DNA from: an uncultured virus (IMG/VR IMGVR_UViG_3300042544_003275)
Taxonomy: Duplodnaviria > Heunggongvirae > Uroviricota > Caudoviricetes
Length of the DNA: 64,000 bases
IMG/VR virus record: IMGVR_UViG_3300042544_003275
Reading direction: 5' to 3' (one strand)
Positions 2,866-50,176 of the stretch are shown here, in pieces. The position numbers were made by a program, and so were the translations under genes. Position 1 is the stretch's first letter, and each line of letters begins with the position of its first letter. Under the pieces are notes generated by a model. It searched no databases. It worked only from the letters and a program-made list of their open reading frames with translations, and was not told the origin of the DNA.

Positions 2866-5800
2866 TTAACTTATTATTACTACTCTTCCATTTATAATTG
2901 TAACAGATGATCTAACATCTATTGCATTTACACTTGTTTTTTTAACTTCTGGTACTATTAATTCACCAGTTGTCTCATCCCACATATTAAATAAAATTGC
3001 TTGTGTGTTTAACATGTGAGATATTGAATATGTAACACCACCAGTAAATGATTGTGTTGCTGTATATTTTCCTATTCCTGTTCCAGATGTACCACTTGTT
3101 CCGGTTCCAGATGTTCCATTAGTACCATTTAATCCTGAGGTTCCGGAAGTACCAGTTAGTCCAGAAGTACCAGATGTTCCTCTTGTTCCTGAAGTACCAC
3201 TTGTACCATTAACACCACTTGTACCACTTGTTCCATCTAATCCAGAAGTACCAGATGTTCCATCTATTCCTGAACTACCACTTGTGCCGGTTAATCCAGA
3301 GGTTCCAGAGCTACCGGTCAACCCACTAGTCCCGGAAGTTCCGGTCAACCCACTTGTTCCGGATGTTCCAGTTCTACCGGAAGTACCAGCAGTACCAGTA
3401 GATCCAGAGGTTCCAGAGGTTCCAGATGTTCCAGCTAATCCGGATGTTCCTGATGTTCCAGTTAATCCAGAAGTACCACTTGTACCAGTTAGACCGGAAG
3501 TACCAGAAGTACCTGTTAGACCTGATGTACCACTTGTACCAGTTAGTCCGGATGTTCCGGATGTTCCAGTCAGTCCACTAGTACCATTTGTACCAGTCAG
3601 TCCACTAGTACCATTTGTGCCAGTTAGACCACTAGTTCCTGATGTTCCGGTTAATCCACTAGTTCCGGATGTTCCATTAATACCCGAAGTTCCGGATGTT
3701 CCATTAATACCCGAACTTCCGGATGTTCCGGTTAATCCACTAGTTCCGGATGTTCCGGTTAATCCACTAGTTCCGGATGTTCCATTATTACCTTGAATCC
3801 CTTGTGGACCTTGAAGTTCACCCATGTCAACCCACCCCTCAGAGTTTGATGCTAAAGATGATGGATTGTATATCCAAAAGTGTGATGTATCTTGTAATAT
3901 ATAAGCATCTAAATTATTAGGAGGTACTACAGAATATGAGGTACCATGACTTTGTGTCATTGATGAATAGTTTAATTCAACACCTAGTGCTGTTAGTGAC
4001 TCTCCTGGATCTCCTTTAGCACCTGATGTTCCTGATGTTCCAGTTAATCCACTGGTTCCTGAACTACCCGATGTTCCATTTGTTCCATTAAAACCTGATG
4101 TGCCGGAAGTACCATTAATACCAGAAGTACCACTTGTCCCAGTTAATCCACTTGTACCACTTGTTCCAGTTAATCCACTAGTTCCTGATGTTCCTTCTAA
4201 ACCTGAAGTTCCTGATGTACCTTCTAAACCCGAAGTTCCGCTTGTTCCTTCTAAACCAGAAGTTCCGCTTGTTCCGGTTCCAGATGTACCTGATGTACCA
4301 GTTAATCCACTTGTACCTGATGTACCAACTGCTGAAGTACCTGAAGTTCCGGATGTACCAGTTGCTGATGTACCGTTTGTACCATTTAATCCTGAGGTTC
4401 CAGAGGTTCCAGTACCAGAGGTTCCAGCTGTTCCATTTAATCCTGATGTACCAGAGGTTCCAGTTAATCCTGAAGTGCCACTTGTGCCATTTAATCCTGA
4501 CGTACCAGAGGTTCCATTTAATCCTGATGTGCCAGCGGTTCCATTTAATCCTGACGTACCAGCGGTTCCATTTAATCCTGACGTACCAGCGGTTCCATTT
4601 AATCCTGACGTACCAGCGGTTCCATTTAATCCTGACGTACCAGCGGTTCCAGTTATTCCAGATGTGCCACTTGTACCGGTTAATCCTGAGGTACCAGCGG
4701 TTCCATTTGTGCCTGATATTCCACTTGTACCGGTTAATCCTGAGGTACCAGCGGTTCCATTTGTGCCTGATATTCCACTTGTTCCGTTTGTTCCATTAAC
4801 ACCTGGTAAACCTTGAGGTCCTTGTATCTCACCCATATCAACCCAACCTTCATAGTTAGAGACACTAGATGTTGGATTGTATATCCAAAAGTGTGATGTA
4901 TCTTGTAATATGTAAGCATCTAAATTATTAGGTGGTATAACTGAATATGAAGTACCATAACTTTGTGTCATTGAAGAGTAGTTTAGTTCGATACCAAGAG
5001 CTGTTATAGATTCTCCTGGATTTCCTTGAGCACCAGAAGTACCAGATGTTCCTGTTCCACTAGAACCGGAAGTACCGGAACTACCTGAAGTACCATATAT
5101 TGAACCTTGTACATCCCATGCTGCTCCATTCCAGATATAAAAATCTCCGGTGGTTTCGTCTAAATAGATATCACCCTGATTTACACCGGTCGTTATAGGT
5201 ACTCCTGTTCCAAGTGTCCATGTATTACCTGAATCACCACTTGATCCTGAGGTTCCATCTATTCCTGAACTACCACTTGTGCCTGTTAATCCAGAGGTTC
5301 CAGAGCTACCGGAGGTTCCAGAGCTACCACTTGTGCCTGTTAATCCAGAACTTCCAGATGTTCCATCTATTCCTGAAGTACCAGAGGTTCCAGTTAATCC
5401 AGAAGTGCCAGATGTTCCAGTTAATCCAGAAGTACCAGCGGTTCCACTTAATCCAGAGGTTCCAGCGGTTCCACTTAATCCAGAAGTACCAGATGTTCCA
5501 TCAAATCCTGAAGTACCAGATGTTCCATCTATCCCAGAACTTCCAGAGGTTCCGGTTAATCCTGAAGTACCACTTGTTCCATCTATTCCAGAACTTCCAG
5601 ATGTTCCCTCAATTCCACTAGTTCCTGATGTTCCCTCAATTCCACTAGTTCCTGATGTTCCCTCAATTCCACTAGTTCCTGATGTTCCCTCTACACCATT
5701 TACTACCCATGATATAGAGTATTCGGTACCATTTGTAATTAATCCGGTACCATGTAACTTAGTTCCTAAAATAATATCAGTATAATTAGATGACCAAGTA

Positions 5801-7761
5801 ACATCAATTGGATCGACAATATAAATACCACTAATTGAACTATTACCAACTTCTGATATTTTAAATAAAATATTAGATGAATAGTTTGTTATCTCATTTA
5901 ACCAATCTGAATATGAGTTACTATCACTTGATACTGAAGAGATTGAAAGTAATGAAATATTATCTAAATCAGAATCATCTACAAGAAAATATGTAGAACC
6001 TGGATCATTTGGGGATGAAGATGAATTATTAAATATCCATCTAGCTGAATTTGATGCATCATTTCCTGATACACCTGATGTTCCTGACGATCCATTTGTT
6101 CCTGATAAACCTTGTGGTCCTTGTATAGGTCCCATGTCAACCCATCCTTCATAGTTTGCAGCTCCAGATGATGTATCATATATCCATAAATGACTTGTAT
6201 CTTGTACAATATACACATCTAATAGATTTGGAGTTGGAATAGAATAAGATGTTCCTCTACTTTGTGTCATTGAAGAGTAATCGGCTTCAACTCCTAATGG
6301 TGATAATGTTTCACCTGGTATACCTTGTCCTCCTGATGTTCCACTTGTACCATTAACTCCTGATGTTCCACTTGTACCACTGATTCCAGAGGTTCCACTT
6401 GTACCATCTATTCCAGATGTTCCACTTGTACCATCAAATCCACTGGTTCCTGATGTTCCATCATATCCTGATGTTCCACTTGTTCCATTTGACACAGAAT
6501 CAACATATCCTTTAGTAACTAAAGAGTGAGTAGTAAAGTTACCAGTATAATCACCATAATAGATAAGACCCTTTTGATTCTCATCATCCATCACAATCAT
6601 TCTGTTGTTATCAGAACCATCTCCAGATACTTCATTATACGAATAGATATTAAAGTAATTTGACTGAGTAAATCCATTATCCAATGCAAATGATATTCCA
6701 GCAGAATTGGCTTGAATGTTGAATGTATTACTATTTGTTACACTTTGGTAATACATATTAACATAATCACCAGCTGATTGTATTTCTGTGTATCCATCGT
6801 TATTATATGATTGTATAGTTGAGTACGATGCTTGTATAAAAACTGATCCAGTTCCTATTATATTGAGATTAAATCCATTTCCATCAATTGTAGTGTCTTG
6901 ACTTAAAGTCCCGCCTAATATAACTTCATTACTTACTACTTGTAAACCATTACTAGCCGATGTTGTAGTATCAACCCAATAAACATTACCAGAACCATCT
7001 GTTTGTAATACTTGGTTTATAGAACCATCTGTATTTGGTAATGTATAAACATTATTAATATTAACATTATTTCCTAAATAAACCGTATTATTTTGAGATG
7101 CTGTTAGATATTCACCACCAATTATAACTGAACCTTCTACTCCAATATTTGTTAATGATGACTTTGAGTTTATATGAACGTAAGCTTTGTTTTGACTACC
7201 TGAATCATATGATGAACCTGCTTCTATTATTTTAACATCATCATATAATAAAGTTGAGTCTACAAGTGATATTGAATAATTAAGAGAATCTTGATTAACT
7301 AATGTATATTTTGCATTCTCACCAGAGAATAAATTAATAAATGGTAAATTTGATGCAGTACCAGGATTTATCTCAATAACAGAATATGATCCTGTTAAAG
7401 TATTTTCAGTGTAAAATCTTGAGTTTGCATTTGGTCTTAGTAATAAATTAGAGCTTATATATCCAGATGTATTTGCCAATGATGTAGCGGTTGAATTAAA
7501 TACCAAAGATCCTGACTCAGATGATATACCAGAACCATCAGTCATTTCTATTGAGTAAGTACCAGCATCATTACCAACAGTTAATACTTCAGATAACGAT
7601 GGTGTAGCACCGCCAGAACCAGCACCAATTTGAGTAATTACTCCGAATTCATCTTTTTGCTTTAAAACACCATCTATATCATAAGCCACCGTCCAAGCTC
7701 CTGTTGAAGGAGTTGCAGCGTCAACCAATGACATAGTATTACCAAAATATATAAAACTCAT
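2866..7761 (-). CDS. collagen-like (Gly-Thr-Ser repeat) fibre protein
   Basis: 1631 aa, long G-X-Y runs (GTSGTSG), three copies of a ~65-aa domain ending GWVDMGxxQGPQG. Confidence 0.75.
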
Positions 7762-10053: not shown

Positions 10054-10089
10054 AATGTATATATTATTTATTATTTTTGTGAAAAATAT

Positions 10090-10119
10090 CAAAAGGAAGA
10101 AAACTTTTTTAATATATAC
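10090..10119 (+). promoter_or_regulatory. putative phage-type promoter AAAAGGAAGAA..TTTAATATATA
   Basis: Same motif recurs at ~25557 and ~37121 upstream of tRNA units. Confidence 0.5.
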
Positions 10120-10135
10120 ACATACAATAAAACAT

Positions 10136-10208
10136 TGTGGGATGGAGCAGTTGGTAGCTCGCAAGGCTCATAACCTTGAGGTCGTCCGTTCGAGTCGGGC
10201 TCCCGCTA
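10136..10208 (+). tRNA. tRNA-Met(CAT), initiator-like
   Basis: Cloverleaf, loop CTCATAA, 1:72 mismatch. Confidence 0.85.
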
Positions 10209-10218
10209 CAAAAGAAAG

Positions 10219-10270
10219 ACAGGATTTAAATCTGGACAGTTTGTAAAAACAGGATTAAAATCTAGACAGT
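10219..10270 (+). repeat. two imperfect 22-bp direct repeats
   Basis: ACAGGATTTAAATCTGGACAGT / ACAGGATTAAAATCTAGACAGT, 30-bp period. Confidence 0.7.
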
Positions 10271-10294
10271 CTTTCGGAGAATTATTAAAATAAA

Positions 10295-10326
10295 TTTGGT
10301 AGATTGAAAAAGTCTACTTATATTTG
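10295..10326 (+). promoter_or_regulatory. Bacteroidota-type sigma70 promoter for leader 1
   Basis: TTTG...TATATTTG (-33/-7 consensus). Confidence 0.7.
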
Positions 10327-10362
10327 TAAAAGAATTAAAAACAATTAAAAAATAAAAAGACA

Positions 10363-10437
10363 ATGACAACAATTTCTACATATTATTATGAGGTCGAGAG
10401 CAAAAGCTCCGTCAGACGAGTAGTGATTATGTCGTAA
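10363..10437 (+). CDS. attenuator leader peptide 1 (MTTISTYYYEVESKSSVRRVVIMS)
   Basis: 24-aa ORF with TAT-TAT-TAT-GAG-GTC-GAG ahead of terminator and Tyr/Glu tRNAs. Confidence 0.8.
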   Translation: MTTISTYYYEVESKSSVRRVVIMS

Positions 10438-10462
10438 TTGAAAAATATTATATAAACACTTC

Positions 10463-10494
10463 AACCCAGTCTGACTTATCAGACTGGGTTTTTT
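10463..10494 (+). terminator. attenuator terminator 1
   Basis: AACCCAGTCTGA-ctta-TCAGACTGGGTT + T tract; 5' arm complementary to GTCAGAC in leader. Confidence 0.85.
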
Positions 10495-10505
10495 GTTTTA
10501 AATTT

Positions 10506-10573
10506 GGGATGGGTTATGGTGACGGCCGGATCTGTAAAATCCTAGCAGGTGAGTTCGAGTCTCACACATCCCA
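10506..10573 (+). tRNA. atypical tRNA-Tyr(GTA), short D arm, no long variable arm
   Basis: Loop CTGTAAA; T arm GTGAG-TTCGAGT-CTCAC. Confidence 0.6.
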
Positions 10574-10579
10574 CAAAAT

Positions 10580-10651
10580 GTTCCGTTCGTCTAGCGGTAG
10601 GACATCTTCCTTTCAAGAAGAAGGTCACGGGTTCGAATCCCGTACGGAATA
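10580..10651 (+). tRNA. tRNA-Glu(TTC)
   Basis: Cloverleaf, loop CTTTCAA. Confidence 0.9.
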
Positions 10652-10656
10652 CAAAT

Positions 10657-10728
10657 GGTCCTGTCGACTAATGGTCAGGTCAACACCCTTTCAAGGTGCA
10701 GATGCGGGTTCGATCCCCGTCAGGACTA
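10657..10728 (+). tRNA. tRNA-Glu(TTC)
   Basis: Cloverleaf, loop CTTTCAA. Confidence 0.85.
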
Positions 10729-10748
10729 CAAAAAATAAAATGAAAAGA

Positions 10749-10780
10749 TTAGGTGGAAATGAAAAACTTCCTTATCTTTG
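10749..10780 (+). promoter_or_regulatory. internal Bacteroidota-type promoter in tRNA cluster 1
   Basis: TTAGGT...TATCTTTG. Confidence 0.55.
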
Positions 10781-10835
10781 TAAAACAAAAGAGGTAAATA
10801 TAAATCCAAGTAACCCCTTGGTTTTTTACTAACTT

Positions 10836-10907
10836 GGTCCCATCGTCTAACGGTTAGGACGTTAGGTTTTCATCCTAGAAATCGGAGTTCGATTCTCCGT
10901 GGGACTA
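10836..10907 (+). tRNA. tRNA-Glu(TTC)
   Basis: Cloverleaf, loop TTTTCAT. Confidence 0.9.
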
Positions 10908-11003
10908 CAAATATCGGAGTAATTAACCGATACTAACAAGAAGATGTATCATATATCGCAGTGAGATTTGGTACCAGTAATTTCTGATATGTCTACTTGA
11001 ATA

Positions 11004-11079
11004 ACTGCTTATGGTGTAAATTGGTTTGCACATCGGTCATTAGGCCGAAGGGCTATAGGTTCGAGTCCTATGGGTAGTT
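11004..11079 (+). tRNA. tRNA-like element, anticodon not assignable
   Basis: D, anticodon and T arms present but loop is 6 nt (TCGGT-CATTAG-GCCGA). Confidence 0.5.
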
Positions 11080-11084
11080 CATAT

Positions 11085-11167
11085 TGGAAGGTGGCAGAGT
11101 GGTTAAATGCGTTTGACTGTAAATCAAATCTCTTACGAGTACGGGGGTCCGAATCCCTCCCTTCCAA
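11085..11167 (+). tRNA. tRNA-Tyr(GTA)
   Basis: Loop CTGTAAA, long variable arm. Confidence 0.9.
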
Positions 11168-11169
11168 CA

Positions 11170-11200
11170 AAAAAACCTCTGATTTCTCAGAGGTTTTTTT
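11170..11200. terminator. bidirectional intrinsic terminator
   Basis: AAAAAACCTCTGA-tttc-TCAGAGGTTTTTTT between convergent units. Confidence 0.8.
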
Positions 11201-11202
11201 AT

Positions 11203-11547
11203 TTATTCAACAACATTTGATTCGGTCATTCCGTCTTCTTCGTCAACTTTCTGTATTAACATTTTATCTCTGTCTTCAGAATTAAACCAATAATCTACAA
11301 CTTTATTTAAGTTACCAACGAAAGCACCTAATAAAATTAATAACATTTCTTTCCAATCTTCGTTTATTGAAGCACCAAGAAAAACACCAGCATTAATTCC
11401 TAAAACTATAAGTACAAATATACCTAATACAATAGCGGTAATTCTCCATCTATTAGCTTGCATTTGTTGAAGCATATAGTAGAATCTGTTTTTATCTTCT
11501 ACTTTTACATAGTCAGTTTTACTACTAAAGAAATTTCTTATTCTCAT
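11203..11547 (-). CDS. small two-TM membrane protein (possibly holin-like)
   Basis: Two hydrophobic segments, charged C-terminus. Confidence 0.6.
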   Translation of the reverse strand: MRIRNFFSSKTDYVKVEDKNRFYYMLQQMQANRWRITAIVLGIFVLIVLGINAGVFLGASINEDWKEMLLILLGAFVGNLNKVVDYWFNSEDRDKMLIQKVDEEDGMTESNVVE

Positions 11548-11641
11548 ATATTTTTTTATTTTTATATATTAGAAAAATATTTTAATTTTTTTATTAGGGG
11601 GAATGAAACTTTTTATATATATTTGTATAAAATTAAACGAA

Positions 11642-11722
11642 ATGAAAAATTTAAATAACATATCAACAGCAATAATCGGAGGCGGCGCGGGAGCGAGAGT
11701 CACTGGCTGGATTATGTTGTAA
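11642..11722 (+). CDS. attenuator leader peptide 2 (MKNLNNISTAIIGGGAGARVTGWIML)
   Basis: 26-aa ORF with GCA-ATA-ATC-GGA-GGC-GGC-GCG-GGA-GCG ahead of terminator and Ile/Gly/Ala tRNAs. Confidence 0.8.
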   Translation: MKNLNNISTAIIGGGAGARVTGWIML

Positions 11723-11745
11723 TTTTTTATTAAAAGAATTAAACG

Positions 11746-11777
11746 AAACCCAGTCAATTATTTGACTGGGTTTTTTT
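11746..11777 (+). terminator. attenuator terminator 2
   Basis: AAACCCAGTCAA-ttat-TTGACTGGGTTT + T tract; CCAGTCA can pair with leader TGGCTGG. Confidence 0.85.
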
Positions 11778-11786
11778 GTTTTATAT

Positions 11787-11860
11787 TGGTGAGTAGCTTA
11801 GATGGTAAAAGCATGTGTCTTATACACACAAGATAGTGGGATCGTTACCCACCTCACCAA
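11787..11860 (+). tRNA. tRNA-Ile(TAT)
   Basis: TGTGT-CTTATAC-ACACA; T loop ATCGTTA. Confidence 0.8.
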
Positions 11861-11867
11861 CAAAATT

Positions 11868-11939
11868 GCGGGTATCGTATAATGGTTATTACACCGGCCT
11901 TCCAAGTCGGTGATGTCAGTTCGATTCTGGTTACCCGCA
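11868..11939 (+). tRNA. tRNA-Gly(TCC)
   Basis: Loop CTTCCAA. Confidence 0.9.
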
Positions 11940-11983
11940 CAACCTGCAGGATGATCCACCGTTGAATCACGGTGCCTGCTCCA

Positions 11984-12057
11984 GGGGGATTAGCTCAGCT
12001 GGCTAGAGCGCCGTGGTAGCACCGCGGATGTCAACGGTTCGAATCCGTTATCCTCCA
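11984..12057 (+). tRNA. tRNA-Ala(AGC)
   Basis: CCGTG-GTAGCAC-CGCGG, G3:U70 pair. Confidence 0.8.
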
Positions 12058-12066
12058 CTAATTTTA

Positions 12067-12139
12067 GGGGCTATCGTATAATAGGCTATTACAATGGGTT
12101 TGCAACTCATAGAACACGGTTCGATCCCGTGTAGCTCCA
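12067..12139 (+). tRNA. tRNA-Ala(TGC)
   Basis: Loop TTTGCAA, G3:U70 pair. Confidence 0.9.
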
Positions 12140-12282
12140 CTAAAAAATAACTAAATATATAGGAGAACAAGGGCTGTGGACGCAATTTAAAAAGTAAAGT
12201 AGAAAGAATCGAAGAAAGAAAAAAAGTAATCGGTTCTAAACATAGAAGAAAACTAAAAAGATATTCTGAGAGTTTTAACAGA

Positions 12283-15704: not shown

Positions 15705-16292
15705 ATGATTAAAGTTCTAAATGGTGTTCCAAAAGGTGAGTTTGGTCTTGCTTGTTCTGGTGGTGTAGATTCTATGGCTATTCTTGACTTTTTAATCAAT
15801 GGTAGATATAATCCACATGTTCTTTATTTTAATCATAATACTGAACACGGACACGAAGCTGAAAAATTTATTACAGATTATTGTAAAGAAAAAAATCTTA
15901 AACTAACTATTGGTAGAACTGAATTAAAACCAACATCTAATAAAGAAAAGATTTGGTCTGATTTAAGATATGAATTCTTTTCTCAGTTTGATTTTCCTAT
16001 TATGACTTGTCACCACTTAGATGATTGTGTTGAAACTTATTTATTCTCTTGTTTAAGAGGATTTCAATCTGTTATTCCTTATTCAAGAGGAAATGTAATT
16101 AGACCTTTTTTACTAAATGAGAAATCAGTATTTGAAAAATGGTGTAAACAAAAAGGTGTTCCGTTTATACAAGATCAATCTAACGATTGTTTAGACTATT
16201 CGAGAAATAGAATTAGAAATAAAATTGTTCCGGAAGCTCTTAAAGTAAATCCAGGACTTAAAACGGTTGTTAAAAAAATGATTAAATTATGA
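15705..16292 (+). CDS. tilS: tRNA(Ile)-lysidine synthetase, catalytic domain only
   Basis: SGGVDS PP-loop, HHLDD, IRPFL, DQSN, RNRIR. Confidence 0.85.
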   Translation: MIKVLNGVPKGEFGLACSGGVDSMAILDFLINGRYNPHVLYFNHNTEHGHEAEKFITDYCKEKNLKLTIGRTELKPTSNKEKIWSDLRYEFFSQFDFPIMTCHHLDDCVETYLFSCLRGFQSVIPYSRGNVIRPFLLNEKSVFEKWCKQKGVPFIQDQSNDCLDYSRNRIRNKIVPEALKVNPGLKTVVKKMIKL

Positions 16293-25400: not shown

Positions 25401-25585
25401 TTTGGTGAAATGTAAATAACACCGTATATTTGTAGAACAATTGAGAGAGGCAACGATTCAGATACAACTCTTGATTGTTTTTACATTTTATTTTATAAAA
25501 AATTAGGTAGAATTAAAACTTTTTACTAATTTTGTATAAAATAAGAACAAAACAACAAAAGGAAGAATAACTTTTTAATATATAC
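25401..25585 (+). promoter_or_regulatory. tandem promoters upstream of leader 3
   Basis: TTTG..TATATTTG, TTAGG..TAATTTTG, and GGAAGAA..TAATATATA. Confidence 0.6.
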
Positions 25586-25589
25586 AACA

Positions 25590-25700
25590 ATGAGAACAAT
25601 GAATTTAAATATGAACATTAATACACTGACAGTGGTGAATAATACGTTATGTATTAGACCATCTGAGGGTTTTGTCATATCTAAACGATTTGTTAGTTAA
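25590..25700 (+). CDS. attenuator leader peptide 3 (MRTMNLNMNINTLTVVNNTLCIRPSEGFVISKRFVS)
   Basis: First 23 residues use only M,R,T,N,L,I,V,C, the amino acids of the downstream tRNA array. Confidence 0.85.
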   Translation: MRTMNLNMNINTLTVVNNTLCIRPSEGFVISKRFVS

Positions 25701-25735
25701 CATGGAATAATAACAAATTAAATAAAGGATAATCG

Positions 25736-25767
25736 AAACCCTCAGTCTAAAAACTGAGGGTTTTTTT
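25736..25767 (+). terminator. attenuator terminator 3
   Basis: AAACCCTCAGT-ctaaaa-ACTGAGGGTTT + T tract; leader contains CTGAGGGTTTTG. Confidence 0.9.
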
Positions 25768-28291: not shown

Positions 28292-29764
28292 ATGAAAAAT
28301 ATTGTAACAAGAATCGCACCTTCACCCACTGCTCCATTTTCTCATCTTGGAAATTTGAGAACATTATTATATAACTACTTCCTTGCTAAAAGACACGGTG
28401 GTAAATTCATTGTTCGTTTAGAAGATACGGATCGTGATCGTTATACACCATCTTTCTTAACATATTTTAAGGATATGTGTGACTGGCTTGGTATAGTACC
28501 AGATGCTTCTTATTGGAATCCAGATCCAACTATTGGTTCTTTTGTACAATCAGAAAGAGATTATTCTGATAAAGTTAATTACCTAATTGACGCTGGGTTG
28601 GCTTATTATGCTTTTGATACTAAAGATGATTTAGATGCTCTTAAATCAAAGGGTCTTAAATATGACGCAACTACAAGAATGAGTATGAACAACTCTTTAG
28701 TTATGTCTAAAGATGATTTTGACTCAACGATGAAAAATGGTACTCCATATGTTATTCGTTTTGCGGTAAATCCTGATGTTGATATCACTTTTGATGATGC
28801 TATTTTAGGTACAATTACTATTAGTACAAATACTCTTGATGATAAAGTTTTAATTAAGTCAAATGGTATTGGTTCTTATCATCTTTGTAATGTTTGTGAC
28901 GACCATGATATGGGTGTCTCTCATGTTCTTAGAGGTAACGAGTGGGTAAACTCAACACCTTTTCACATCTTAATGTATAAGGCTTTTGGTTGGGATGTTC
29001 CAACATTCTCTCACTTACCATTGATTATGAATCCAGATGGTAAAGGAAAGTTATCTAAAAGAACTGCTGCTAAATATGGTATTCCAATTGCACCAATTGG
29101 TTACTTTGATGATAATGGTGATTATAACAAAGGTTGGAAAGACCTTGGATATGACCCTAAGGCTTTTATGAACGCACTTGCTTTAATTGGATGGAATCCT
29201 GGTGGTGATGTTGAAATGATGTCTATGAAAGATATGATTGATTCTTTCTCTTTAGATAGAGTTCATAAATCAGGAGCTCGTTTTGATATGGATAAAGCAA
29301 AGTGGATTAACGCTCATCATTTGAGAACAACTCCTAATTCTTGTTTGAGACCATTTATCAATATTAAAGACGATAGATATTCTGATGATAAATTAGATAT
29401 GATTATCGATTTGGCGAAAGAAAGATCTGAATTCAAATCTGACCTGAACACTGTTGTTGATTTATTCTTTGATAACCCTGTTATTACAGATAGAAAGAAG
29501 TTAGATGATAACTATACTTCTGTTATGAGTGACTTTGGTAACAACATTGATAATATTGATTTCACATCAACAGACACGATTAAATCGTCTATCGTAGATA
29601 TCTGTGATAGATTAGGTGTTAAGATTGGTAAAGTGATGCCAGGATTGAGAATGGCACTTGTGGGTGGTATTTCTGGACCAGATTTAATGACCACAATGTT
29701 AATCTTGGATAAGAAAGAAACTAAGAAAAGAATATCACTATCGACAAGTTTACTACATATTTAA
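28292..29764 (+). CDS. gltX: glutamyl-tRNA synthetase
   Basis: TRIAPSPT, HLGN, RLEDTD, LRGNEW, KLSKR. Confidence 0.95.
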   Translation: MKNIVTRIAPSPTAPFSHLGNLRTLLYNYFLAKRHGGKFIVRLEDTDRDRYTPSFLTYFKDMCDWLGIVPDASYWNPDPTIGSFVQSERDYSDKVNYLIDAGLAYYAFDTKDDLDALKSKGLKYDATTRMSMNNSLVMSKDDFDSTMKNGTPYVIRFAVNPDVDITFDDAILGTITISTNTLDDKVLIKSNGIGSYHLCNVCDDHDMGVSHVLRGNEWVNSTPFHILMYKAFGWDVPTFSHLPLIMNPDGKGKLSKRTAAKYGIPIAPIGYFDDNGDYNKGWKDLGYDPKAFMNALALIGWNPGGDVEMMSMKDMIDSFSLDRVHKSGARFDMDKAKWINAHHLRTTPNSCLRPFINIKDDRYSDDKLDMIIDLAKERSEFKSDLNTVVDLFFDNPVITDRKKLDDNYTSVMSDFGNNIDNIDFTSTDTIKSSIVDICDRLGVKIGKVMPGLRMALVGGISGPDLMTTMLILDKKETKKRISLSTSLLHI

Positions 29765-37066: not shown

Positions 37067-37150
37067 TTTGGTAGATTAAAAACAAATACATATCTTTGTA
37101 CTATACTATTAAGAAATAGTAAAAAGGAAGAATAATATTTTAATATATAA
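37067..37150 (+). promoter_or_regulatory. tandem promoters upstream of leader 4
   Basis: TTTG..TATCTTTG and AAAAGGAAGAA..TAATATATA. Confidence 0.6.
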
Positions 37151-37156
37151 GAAATA

Positions 37157-37252
37157 ATGAAAACAATTAACGTAAATATCGCACAAGTTAACCCGCAACC
37201 TCAGGATCAGGATTCTAAGGAAGTGACTAACTATGTCTTTACAATAAGTTAA
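37157..37252 (+). CDS. attenuator leader peptide 4 (MKTINVNIAQVNPQPQDQDSKEVTNYVFTIS)
   Basis: PQPQDQD run ahead of terminator and Pro/Asp/Gln tRNAs. Confidence 0.85.
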   Translation: MKTINVNIAQVNPQPQDQDSKEVTNYVFTIS

Positions 37253-37275
37253 TAAAAACATTAAACGATTTGTAT

Positions 37276-37315
37276 AAACCCAGTTAGTCTTTGATTAACT
37301 GGGTTTTTTTTTTTT
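37276..37315 (+). terminator. attenuator terminator 4
   Basis: AAACCCAGTTAGTC-ttt-GATTAACTGGGTTT + T tract; leader GACTAACT complements AGTTAGTC. Confidence 0.9.
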
Positions 37316-37803: not shown

Positions 37804-38049
37804 ATGTTTGTATTCAGAAGAAGTATAACAAATGAAGAATGTGAAGTAGTCGAATTAAAAGGTTCATTAGAAGGTCTTAACTATCGTTTGGATAGTTTAA
37901 TTAATATAAGTAACAGACCTGATAATAGAAGTGACTTAACTGATGAAATAAACCGTGTTAAAAACGAAATTGAAATAAAAGAAATAAAACTAAAAGAAAT
38001 GAGAACATTAGTACAATTCCAGCAACAACAAATTAATCGAACAGATTGA
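37804..38049 (+). CDS. 81-aa coiled-coil ORF whose last 16 codons form leader 5
   Basis: MFVFRRS.. in frame with MRTLVQFQQQQINRTD. Confidence 0.5.
   Translation: MFVFRRSITNEECEVVELKGSLEGLNYRLDSLINISNRPDNRSDLTDEINRVKNEIEIKEIKLKEMRTLVQFQQQQINRTD
37999..38049 (+). CDS. attenuator leader peptide 5 (MRTLVQFQQQQINRTD)
   Basis: Five Gln codons, followed by terminator and two tRNA-Gln. Confidence 0.75.
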   Translation: MRTLVQFQQQQINRTD

Positions 38050-38077
38050 TAATGGAATAATATTGTGTAAACTTTAT

Positions 38078-38111
38078 AAACCCTATTCAATCTTTTGGAT
38101 AGGGTTTTTTT
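38078..38111 (+). terminator. attenuator terminator 5
   Basis: AAACCCTATTCAA-tctt-TTGGATAGGGTTT + T tract. Confidence 0.85.
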
Positions 38112-40163: not shown

Positions 40164-40577
40164 ATGAATTTATTTTTAGATGATATCAGAACCCCAGATA
40201 TGGCTCACCATTCTGGTAAGGGACTGGGACCTGCTTATTCTTCTGAGGATAAATGGGTAATCACTCGTGACTATTTTGACTTTGTTGATATAGTTAATAA
40301 ACACTTCGATGAAATTGAATTAGTTTCATTCGATCACGATTTGGCTTGTTACAAAGATGGTGTAGAATACACTGGTAAAACAGCTGTTGATTACTTGGTG
40401 AATTATTGTTTAGATAATGATAAGAAATTTCCAAGTTGGTATGCACACACTGACAATACATCAGGACGTCAAAATATTATAGGAACAATTATAGGATATT
40501 TGAAAACGGTAGAAGGATTAGATACTTCTAAATTCAGATATTATCACAACGGAATTTTAAATGGACTAGCAGTATGA
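40164..40577 (+). CDS. cyclic-phosphate-processing receiver-like domain protein
   Basis: LFLDDIR, SFDHDL, TG, HTDN motifs. Confidence 0.7.
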   Translation: MNLFLDDIRTPDMAHHSGKGLGPAYSSEDKWVITRDYFDFVDIVNKHFDEIELVSFDHDLACYKDGVEYTGKTAVDYLVNYCLDNDKKFPSWYAHTDNTSGRQNIIGTIIGYLKTVEGLDTSKFRYYHNGILNGLAV

Positions 40578-48944: not shown

Positions 48945-49860
48945 CAACGTTCTTTGAAGTATTAAAAATTTTACTGAAACTCGACTTCGGTCTTAGTTCT
49001 TCGGAACAGAGTGTGTAAGTAAAGGGCGGCTTATAGTCCTTAAATAAACCTCGAAAGGGGGATAAAGTGGATACAAATGCTAATTGTATCTGCGTCTTGA
49101 GAGTTCTTCGGAACAATTGAGGTCGAGTAAGCAAGTGGGACACCACAAGTTCTGAGTAGTCGAGGGTAACACTGTAGACCAAATGAGTTTGTGACCGGGC
49201 AATTGTAGATTGTTTGGTTGACCTCGGAAGAGGAATAGGAATAACCCATAGGAATTATGTAAGAAATAAAGACTCACCGGTTTTTACTATTGCGAGTTCC
49301 AACTTAAAAGGTGTCTTAAAGTTGAAAGACAATCAGTTGTACAGGTGGTGCTGTTAATTGACACTAATCTCCCTACCAAGGGAGTAGATAAACCGAAAGG
49401 TGAGTCGTGGTGAAGATATCTTGAAGAGTTGTGATGGAGGCATCACACGGAGTAGTCCAGTATTCTTGAGACCAAAAGTCATGAGAGCTGAGAGGTGACC
49501 ACTACTTCGACATAATCTACTAGCACTAAATTTCTAACTGTTAATTGGAAACATTTAAAAATAAGAAATCAAAAGTGTTACCTAGTTACTGATGAAAGGT
49601 ACCTACTTAGTCGTGAGTGTTCACGGCCACTGAAGCTCGAAAGGCCGATGTGATTTCATCGAAAAACTTATAGAGGGTCGAACCTCGAATCAGCTCGCAA
49701 GGTTGAATAAGCGGATTAAATGGAGAGTAAACAGTAACTCAAGGAGTGGTTAGTCTAACTAACCGGTACTGACAGAATACTACTCAAAAGGTAGTGGATA
49801 AGTTTGGGAAATCATAATCCAACTAAAGATCTGTCGTATAGGATGTAATCTCAGTCCTTT
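48945..49860 (+). ncRNA. large structured non-coding RNA (GOLLD-like candidate)
   Basis: ~900 nt, raised GC, no credible ORF, many UUCG/GNRA hairpins, flanked by tRNAs. Confidence 0.6.
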
Positions 49861-50042: not shown

Positions 50043-50149
50043 GGCCCGTTCGTCTACAGGACTCGCAAGAGAAACTGAAACCTCGGTAGAAGTTTAGGAT
50101 ATCCAACTTTTCGGTTGGAAGATAGAGTGTTCGAATCCTCTACGGGCTA
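50043..50149 (+). tRNA. tRNA-Glu-like with ~40-nt D loop and 8-nt anticodon loop
   Basis: GGCCCGT/ACGGGCT acceptor, TCCAA-CTTTTCGG-TTGGA. Confidence 0.5.
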
Positions 50150-50176
50150 CAAAAAATTGACCCAAACGATGAAGGA

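Follow-up and report, generated by a model that had tools for sequence, protein, structure and literature searches.

A candidate leader-peptide attenuator ahead of tyrosine and glutamate tRNA genes in an uncultured phage

The IMG/VR record IMGVR_UViG_3300042544_003275, a stretch of 64,000 nucleotides (nt) from an uncultured virus of the Caudoviricetes (the window, meaning this whole stretch), harbors 33 transfer RNA (tRNA) genes as called by ARAGORN. One of the tRNA clusters, which serves Tyr and Glu (three-letter amino-acid codes are used throughout), is preceded by a promoter, a small open reading frame (ORF) containing clustered Tyr and Glu codons, and an intrinsic terminator; this arrangement is referred to below as the Tyr/Glu element. 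A first-pass annotation had interpreted it as a leader-peptide attenuator, and all of the coordinates and sequence elements that it gave were found again in their places. From the promoter to the end of the tRNA unit, the locus comprises the following features.

10295..10326, + strand: Bacteroidota-type promoter, TTTG, 20-nt spacer, TAnnTTTG
10363..10437, + strand: leader ORF, 24 codons plus stop, ATG at 10363, stop codon at 10435-10437
10370..10397, + strand: segment 1, 5′ strand of a protector helix over the regulatory codons in the minimum free energy (MFE) fold of 10333-10500
10381..10398, + strand: regulatory codons Tyr-Tyr-Tyr-Glu-Val-Glu, 5 of 6 cognate to downstream tRNAs
10411..10417, + strand: antiterminator strand GTCAGAC, pairs with 10469-10475
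10420..10451, + strand: segment 2, with the stop codon and a stop-codon hairpin, pairs with segment 1 or folds on itself
10463..10500, + strand: intrinsic terminator, stem 10463-10490 of 12 pairs (6 G-C), loop of 4, then a T-run, −19.1 kcal/mol
10508..10576, + strand: tRNA-Tyr-like element, 69 nt, GTA at the anticodon position, called by neither ARAGORN nor Rfam
10580..10729, + strand: two tRNA-Glu (UUC) genes (ARAGORN), starts 10580 and 10657
10743..10785, + strand: internal promoter-like site, exact TATCTTTGTAAAA at 10773-10785, −33 part TTAGG, not TTTG
10806..10821, + strand: small hairpin of 5 pairs and a T-run, after the internal promoter
10836..11168, + strand: distal genes, namely tRNA-Glu (10836), a tRNA-like element (11005-11078) and tRNA-Tyr (11085-11168)
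11169..11200, both strands: two-way terminator closing the unit, 14 pairs

The promoter follows the Bacteroidetes consensus of TTTG and then TAnnTTTG, as quoted in PMC7366714. The pattern TTTG-N18-22-TAnnTTTG occurs 16 times in the window against 3.59 expected, a number reached in 0 of 100 shuffles. Between the upstream tRNA-Met gene and the promoter lie two 22-nt direct repeats (10219-10240 and 10249-10270), each partly palindromic and with no other copy in the window, which may be a candidate protein-binding site. The leader ORF opens with A at all seven positions favored before Bacteroidetes start codons (−3, −6 and −11 to −15), a context seen at 0.4% of the 1345 ATG triplets of the + strand. 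Its codons TAT TAT TAT GAG GTC GAG, listed in the first-pass annotation, do stand at 10381-10398, and a cognate run of 5 in 6 was equalled by 6 of 2000 random peptides drawn with the phage's own amino-acid composition, the control used for all leaders below.

The heptamer GTCAGAC (10411-10417), which begins about 13 nt past the last GAG as had been proposed (12 nt intervene), is indeed complementary to GTCTGAC at 10469-10475, a site comprised of six bases of the terminator 5′ arm and the first base of the loop. A Watson-Crick complement of 7 base pairs (bp) was reached by 100 of 5000 shuffled leaders and is modest alone; the support for the pairing is mainly comparative. The whole leader (10333-10500) has an MFE of −41.3 kcal/mol (z = −5.2, with 0 of 200 shuffles as good), in a fold that contains the terminator and joins 10370-10389 to 10420-10440 and 10393-10397 to 10412-10417; thus, the sensing codons are partners of the region that holds the antiterminator strand. 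In an RNA that mimics the stalled state (10399-10478, with the 5′ part and the terminator 3′ arm omitted), the GTCAGAC/GTCTGAC helix forms (−18.1 kcal/mol, z = −3.8) and encloses an inner hairpin containing the stop codon.

A metagenome scan with a pattern combining antiterminator and terminator yielded 34 loci; a first IMG/VR pattern, consisting of the antiterminator strand and the 5′ arm alone, had been too loose, giving 120 loci with a terminator hairpin in none. The Tyr/Glu leader ORF is open in 29 of the 34 loci and in all related phages examined, and the remaining five loci, which have neither ORF nor tRNA, are chance matches. In all 25 loci with more than 141 nt of downstream sequence the leading tRNA call is for Glu (23 loci) or Tyr (2 loci), the other four of the 29 having at most 141 nt and standing outside this count. 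GTCAGAC is in frame in 29/29, at distances from the ATG of 42, 45, 48, 54, 57 or 69 nt; all six classes are multiples of three, and therefore every length change has preserved the frame. Among distinct leaders, TAT encodes the three Tyr residues in 28/29, 29/29 and 26/29, and GAG serves as the second Glu codon in 25/25; the position between the two Glu codons is free to vary, holding any of four Gly codons and also Val, Glu, Ser or Cys. One variant leader (L168) reads Tyr-Tyr-Tyr-Gln-Gly-Lys, with three Tyr codons and no Glu codon, and is followed by a single tRNA-Tyr, neither of two tRNA finders calling a tRNA-Glu in the remaining 840 nt. The leader codons of this variant follow its tRNA content.

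The complementarity was also observed in eight genomes that were found without using the antiterminator strand, namely the window, two BLAST relatives and five IMG/VR contigs collected with a pattern of Tyr codons and terminator arm. The 7-nt complement lies at the same place in 8/8: it is GTCAGAC in six; ATCAGAC in one, opposite GTCTGAT, a change from G:C to A:U on both sides; and in one it is offset by one base and includes one G-U pair. In an alignment of 32 leaders the antiterminator helix is paired in 32/32 (100%), with an outer pair of GC in 26, GU in 3 and AU in 1, and three of the seven pairs of the stop-codon hairpin have changed on both sides. Differences between subgroups, which align in different registers, preserve the predicted protector pairing.

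The same layout could in principle serve a phage factor that overcomes a promoter-proximal terminator in the manner of lambda Q at tR′, the case of factor-dependent promoter-proximal antitermination, with the small ORFs having no sensing role. A promoter followed after about 150 nt by a strong terminator is the arrangement of factor-dependent antitermination, and the two 22-nt repeats just upstream of the promoter could bind a protein. However, this account explains neither the match of codons to tRNAs, nor the frame kept across six length classes, nor a leader strand that is complementary to the terminator arm and changes along with it, and we regard it as very unlikely. No Q-like antiterminator protein was found among the Pfam matches of 58 window ORFs, although no search aimed at Q-like proteins was made.

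The computed basis for a model comprises the conserved parts of the element, the agreement of its leader codons with the downstream tRNAs, and its two alternative folds. The conserved ORF, the codons, the terminator and the competing pairing, together with a leader codon content that tracks the tRNA content, support the leader-peptide attenuator first proposed, and the Tyr/Glu element is likely to be a ribosome-mediated transcription attenuator that switches on tRNA genes when the matching charged tRNAs are scarce. Transcription would start at 10295-10326, and the 24-codon leader would be translated as the RNA emerges. With charged tRNA-Tyr and tRNA-Glu plentiful, the ribosome would reach the stop codon, GTCAGAC would be sequestered by the bulk of the ribosome or through renewed pairing with segment 1, the terminator of 12 bp would form, and transcription would end ahead of the tRNA genes. 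With those tRNAs scarce, the ribosome would stall on TAT TAT TAT GAG GTC GAG and cover segment 1, freeing GTCAGAC, some 13 nt ahead, to pair with GTCTGAC of the terminator 5′ arm; with the terminator blocked, transcription would proceed through the Tyr-like element into the genes for tRNA-Glu and, to some extent, into those for the distal tRNA-Glu and tRNA-Tyr. The tRNAs so made would then relieve the stall and close a negative feedback loop. Given the usual dimensions of a ribosome, one whose A site holds the last Glu codon would reach about 10408 and leave 10411 free, and one at the stop codon would have its rear edge at about 10418-10420, adjoining the antiterminator strand, and would cover the inner hairpin. 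The phage would probably make its Tyr and Glu tRNAs mainly when ribosomes run short of them.

As far as sequence comparison can tell, the Tyr/Glu element is part of a larger conserved system of codon-matched modules. A module was defined as a terminator located at most 160 nt upstream of a tRNA and preceded by a small ORF. Each of the five terminators standing ahead of tRNA clusters in the window is preceded by such an ORF, which ends 22-34 nt before the terminator; the five modules are given here with the number of random peptides that equalled the cognate run.

Module 1, leader 10363-10437, + strand: 5 of 6 Tyr/Glu, 6/2000; precedes tRNAs Glu, Glu, Glu, Tyr
Module 2, 11642..11774, + strand: leader 11642-11722, terminator 11745-11774; 9 of 9 Ala/Ile/Gly, 0/2000; precedes tRNA-Ile(UAU), Gly, Ala, Ala
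Module 3, 25590..25764, + strand: leader 25590-25700, terminator 25735-25764; 19 of 22 cognate, 0/2000; precedes 15 tRNAs of six kinds (Asn, Ile, Arg, Leu, Val, Thr)
Module 4, 37157..37306, + strand: leader 37157-37252, terminator 37276-37306; Pro/Asp 4 in 7, 75/2000; run Pro-Gln-Pro-Gln-Asp-Gln-Asp; precedes three tRNA-Asp and tRNA-Pro, with two tRNA-Gln further downstream
Module 5, 37999..38107, + strand: leader 37999-38049, terminator 38078-38107; 5 of 6 Gln, 0/2000; precedes two tRNA-Gln

When the five leaders were scored against the five tRNA sets, the true pairing gave the top total, the single best of 120 permutations. Behind these modules stand 29 of the 33 window tRNAs, those without a module being two tRNA-Met directly behind promoters, a tRNA-Gly(GCC) and a tRNA-Ser that adjoins the GOLLD RNA described below. 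Many of the sensing codons, across leaders, have G or C at the third position and are seldom used in the long ORFs of the phage, in which GAG accounts for 22% of Glu codons, GGC for 2% of Gly, GCG for 5% of Ala, CTG for 3% of Leu and GTG for 4% of Val. The module 3 leader contains an 11-nt copy of its terminator 3′ arm (25663-25673), a length reached by 0 of 1000 shuffles. In the window the Gln leader of module 5 is in frame with an 81-codon ORF (37805-38049) beginning directly behind tRNA-Pro; three relatives have it as a separate ORF of 16-17 codons. An element of about 30 nt, with a purine-rich part, a T-run and alternating A/T, lies ahead of the leaders of modules 3 and 4 (about 25559-25589 and 37124-37156) and also ahead of the tRNA-Met at 10136 (about 10084-10118), and may be a shared 5′ untranslated element.

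A sensor of the T-box type, in which tRNAs bind the leader codons directly and no ribosome takes part, would likewise place cognate codons upstream of a terminator/antiterminator pair, as a T-box does with its specifier codon. But no match to the Rfam T-box family (RF00230, with Stem I, specifier loop and T-box motif) was obtained in the window at gathering scores or in 10200-12200 at E up to 1, the codons lie within a conserved ORF complete with start and stop codons and a favorable start context, and the runs span up to seven amino acids, all of which makes such a sensor extremely improbable.

The closest public DNA to the window is found in LR745206.1 (634,780 bp) and LR756502.1 (642,428 bp), two unannotated records of uncultured phages, which contain the modules of the window in identical order and, in addition, His/Phe/Lys/Trp and Arg/Ser families located outside the window. 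There are 18 modules in the window and these two records and 11 more in two IMG/VR contigs (476 kb and 74.7 kb), a total of 29 modules in seven families across the window and four related huge phages. Two clusters failed the module filter: in LR756502.1 an inserted ORF separates the Asn-family terminator from its tRNAs, and in the 74.7-kb fragment the His/Phe/Lys cluster directly adjoins a protein gene. Members of one family differ in peptide sequence and keep the cognate residues. The true pairing of leaders with clusters is the best of 5040 permutations in LR745206.1 and the best of 720 in LR756502.1. Across families, the leader strand changes together with the terminator stem, as in the His/Phe/Lys and Arg/Ser orthologues, which have different strands, and the duplex energies of own pairs beat those of permuted pairings (permutation counts of 5/120, 9/5040, 88/720, 23/5040 and 1/24).

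These pairings bear on the idea of a general translation gauge, in which the switch would respond to any slowing of the ribosome, or to translation itself, and not specifically to the supply of the downstream tRNAs. The architecture of the switch needs no codon specificity by itself, and the leaders hold non-cognate codons too. Nevertheless, the true pairing of leaders and clusters beats all permutations (1/120, 1/5040 and 1/720), the L168 leader has lost its Glu codons along with the Glu tRNAs, and no part of the ORF is as well conserved as its Tyr and Glu codons; a nonspecific gauge is accordingly quite unlikely.

The design also occurs in a cultured phage, Cellulophaga phage phi4:1 (NC_021788.1), which has, at record positions of about 87,000-88,200, two modules composed of a promoter, a small ORF, a terminator and a tRNA cluster.

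L177 3720-3788: first ORF, 22 codons, residues 4-14 cognate (11/11), 0/2000 random peptides; precedes seven tRNAs (Pro, Glu, Gln, His, Leu, Leu, Arg)
L177 4680-4763: second ORF, 23 of 24 cognate to the next eleven tRNAs, 0/2000 random peptides

The second ORF is contained in the annotated hypothetical protein gp075, for which a start upstream of the likely transcription start is annotated; gp075 is probably mis-started. Ahead of the Ser/Asn/Trp/Phe tRNAs of phi4:1, at gp076, no clean terminator was found. The gene map of Cellulophaga phage phi17:2 is that of phi4:1 without one tRNA-Lys. Since phi4:1 and Cellulophaga baltica provide the design in a cultured phage-host pair, the question is directly testable.

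The terminator can also be considered as constitutive and leaky, ending a short transcript or the unit of the upstream tRNA-Met, with the ORF being a chance frame or a micropeptide with a function of its own. The absence of a visible promoter between tRNA-Met and the leader in LR756502.1 would suit this explanation, as would third codon positions that are not clearly freer, but it is highly improbable in view of a peptide that drifts while its Tyr/Glu codons and frame stay, of the presence of such an ORF at 5/5 window terminators ahead of tRNA clusters, and of the same design in the distant phi4:1.

Turning to the genes behind the Tyr/Glu element, the gene order given by the first-pass annotation stood for three tRNA-Glu and one tRNA-Tyr, all called by ARAGORN, and its unassigned tRNA-like element is a sub-threshold cloverleaf; its Tyr-like first gene is uncalled by the tools. 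This Tyr-like element (10508-10576) has a poor D arm and lacks a long variable arm; its copy in LR745206.1 has a cloverleaf fold with GUA in a 7-nt loop and differs at one anticodon-stem pair, which is changed on both sides. The tRNA-like element at 11005-11078 scores 23.4 bits against a cut-off of 29 and folds as a cloverleaf (z = −3.9) with a loop of 4 nt on its "anticodon" arm; the corresponding position of LR745206.1 is occupied by a tRNA match of 124 nt that includes an insertion. The annotation had also cautioned that an internal promoter near 10749 might express the distal genes independently, and this is plausible, since the exact TATCTTTGTAAAA motif at 10773-10785, identical to the motif at 10319, would allow those genes to bypass the attenuator. 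The 16-mer of the small hairpin at 10806-10821 is also found after a promoter in LR745206.1 (L001 21174-21189), before the Ile/Gly leader.

A number of observations weigh against the attenuator. The second promoter, at about 10743-10785, can plausibly drive the distal genes (tRNA-Glu, the tRNA-like element and tRNA-Tyr) independently of the attenuator, to judge from its motif, which would leave the Tyr-like element and the two proximal tRNA-Glu genes as all that is strictly behind the switch; the two tRNA-Glu genes at 10580..10729 are those most clearly under its control. Metatranscriptome contigs from 4 of 6 RNA runs with small shares of the stretch cover mainly tRNA parts and the distal region, not the leader. 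Of the 32 aligned leaders, 29 came from a search whose pattern already specifies most of the antiterminator and terminator, and invariance there proves nothing. The antiterminator duplex has 7 bp and −8.2 kcal/mol as against −19.1 kcal/mol for the terminator. Duplexes of segment 1 with segment 2 range from −7.2 to −17.1 kcal/mol and were matched by 0 to 130 of 300 shuffles, many sequences being not above shuffles, and in a cross-family control the Tyr/Glu leader favors its own terminator arm in only 1/5 genomes. An equilibrium model was computed with ribosome masks for three states (no ribosome, stalled, and at the stop codon), a decrease of 0.1 or more at the stop codon being counted as supportive. 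For the window copy it gives 0.71, 0.71 and 0.60, respectively, and hardly changes; in two relatives the element switches, from 0.10 and 0.23 rising to 0.70. The model is supportive for 23 of the 29 modules, weakly so for the window copy, and unsupportive for four Asn-family modules, which show no fall at the stop codon, and for two Tyr/Glu modules. The switch of the window copy is thus thermodynamically weak in this model. In the aligned leaders, the variability counts by codon position are 116, 102 and 135, without a clear excess at the third, and the leader peptide itself is under no visible selection; the lack of an excess is expected because the leader peptide would have no function. Finally, the attenuator presumes coupling of ribosome and polymerase in a Bacteroidota host, and translation of the leader, a rise in read-through upon stalling, and the direction and size of the response are what the model predicts.

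The window as a whole is AT-rich, with a GC content of 0.25-0.42 across 2-kb bins, and carries a GOLLD RNA (Rfam match at 49448-49857, 278.7 bits) flanked by tRNA-Met (48850) and tRNA-Ser (49868). The 520 nt that precede the GOLLD match (from 48923) are probably part of the GOLLD RNA, and a tRNA-like gene with an insertion lies at about 50043-50150, downstream of GOLLD and tRNA-Ser. Beside tRNA clusters stand translation- and RNA-related genes (28292-29764, 15705-16292 and 40164-40577), which encode a class I aminoacyl-tRNA synthetase of the Glu/Gln type, a PP-loop ATPase, whose family includes lysidine synthetase, and a cyclic-phosphate-processing receiver domain. The window further encodes many sugar-modifying enzymes and, on the minus strand at 2866-7761, a collagen triple-helix repeat protein of 1631 residues with nine repeat stretches. 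According to PMC7162821, huge phages have up to 67 tRNAs, and those of its genomes that exceed 634 kb are predicted to infect Bacteroidetes; the terms "attenuat" and "leader" do not occur in it.

It is tempting to speculate that about seven independent codon-specific stall sensors, covering nearly all amino acids and each activating exactly the missing tRNAs, form an inducible counter-defence that is widespread in Bacteroidota phages, cultured Cellulophaga phages among them, a tentative extension that we consider possible but doubtful. If true, the phage would rebuild its tRNA pool on demand as host tRNAs decay, and the modules would answer host anticodon nucleases that destroy particular tRNA species, of which tRNA-Lys and tRNA-Tyr are known targets. 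For the attenuator itself, confirmation would establish a direct closed loop, in which a shortage of charged tRNA leads to a stall, to transcription of that tRNA and to relief; it would account for the way in which huge phages, with their 30 to 67 tRNA genes, avoid blind production, and would give a reason for the grouping of phage tRNAs into amino-acid-specific clusters. Small "hypothetical proteins" within phage tRNA arrays would be re-labelled as leader peptides, and synthetic biology would gain compact codon-specific sensors of tRNA supply.

tRNA genes are usually viewed as promoter-controlled, and to our knowledge there is no case of a tRNA gene gated by an attenuator that reads its own codons. 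Full-text literature searches, which left most subscription journals outside their scope and may have missed an older account, found no paper on leader-peptide attenuation of tRNA genes in phages or elsewhere. The Rfam leader families (Trp, His, Leu, Thr, Phe) gave no match at gathering score in the window, and in 10200-12200 at E up to 1 the leader-family matches (Phe_leader, rimP, rnk_pseudo) fall on other terminators and none on this leader, the Phe_leader match (28.5 bits against 55) being on the minus strand at the distal terminator (11166-11226).

Among known systems, T-box riboswitches (RF00230) resemble the phage element in that the status of a tRNA chooses between terminator and antiterminator upstream of translation-related genes, but their binding of uncharged tRNA is direct and needs no ribosome, and they are marked by conserved Stem I and T-box motifs. 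In pheST/pheM of E. coli, a leader-peptide attenuator likewise tunes a component of translation to the supply of one charged tRNA; in contrast to the phage element, pheST encodes a synthetase and not a tRNA, concerns a single amino acid, and is a host gene. The enterobacterial leader-peptide attenuators trpL, hisL, pheL and leuL and the multivalent thrL and ilvL are built like the phage leader, in which regulatory codons clustered in a short ORF come before an antiterminator strand and an intrinsic terminator and a protector helix is predicted; as in the thr and ilv leaders, one phage leader would sense several amino acids. Of the features of class I leader-peptide attenuators, the phage element has the short ORF, the cognate codon run, the intrinsic terminator and an antiterminator pairing that excludes it; the genes it would regulate are tRNA genes, not those of amino-acid biosynthesis or synthetases, and it is therefore not classed as a member of the described attenuator family. 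By contrast with the enterobacterial attenuators, it is located in a phage, with Bacteroidota-type promoters and no Shine-Dalgarno sequences, and would control tRNA genes instead of biosynthetic enzymes, so that the signal it would read, charged tRNA, is made from the product itself.

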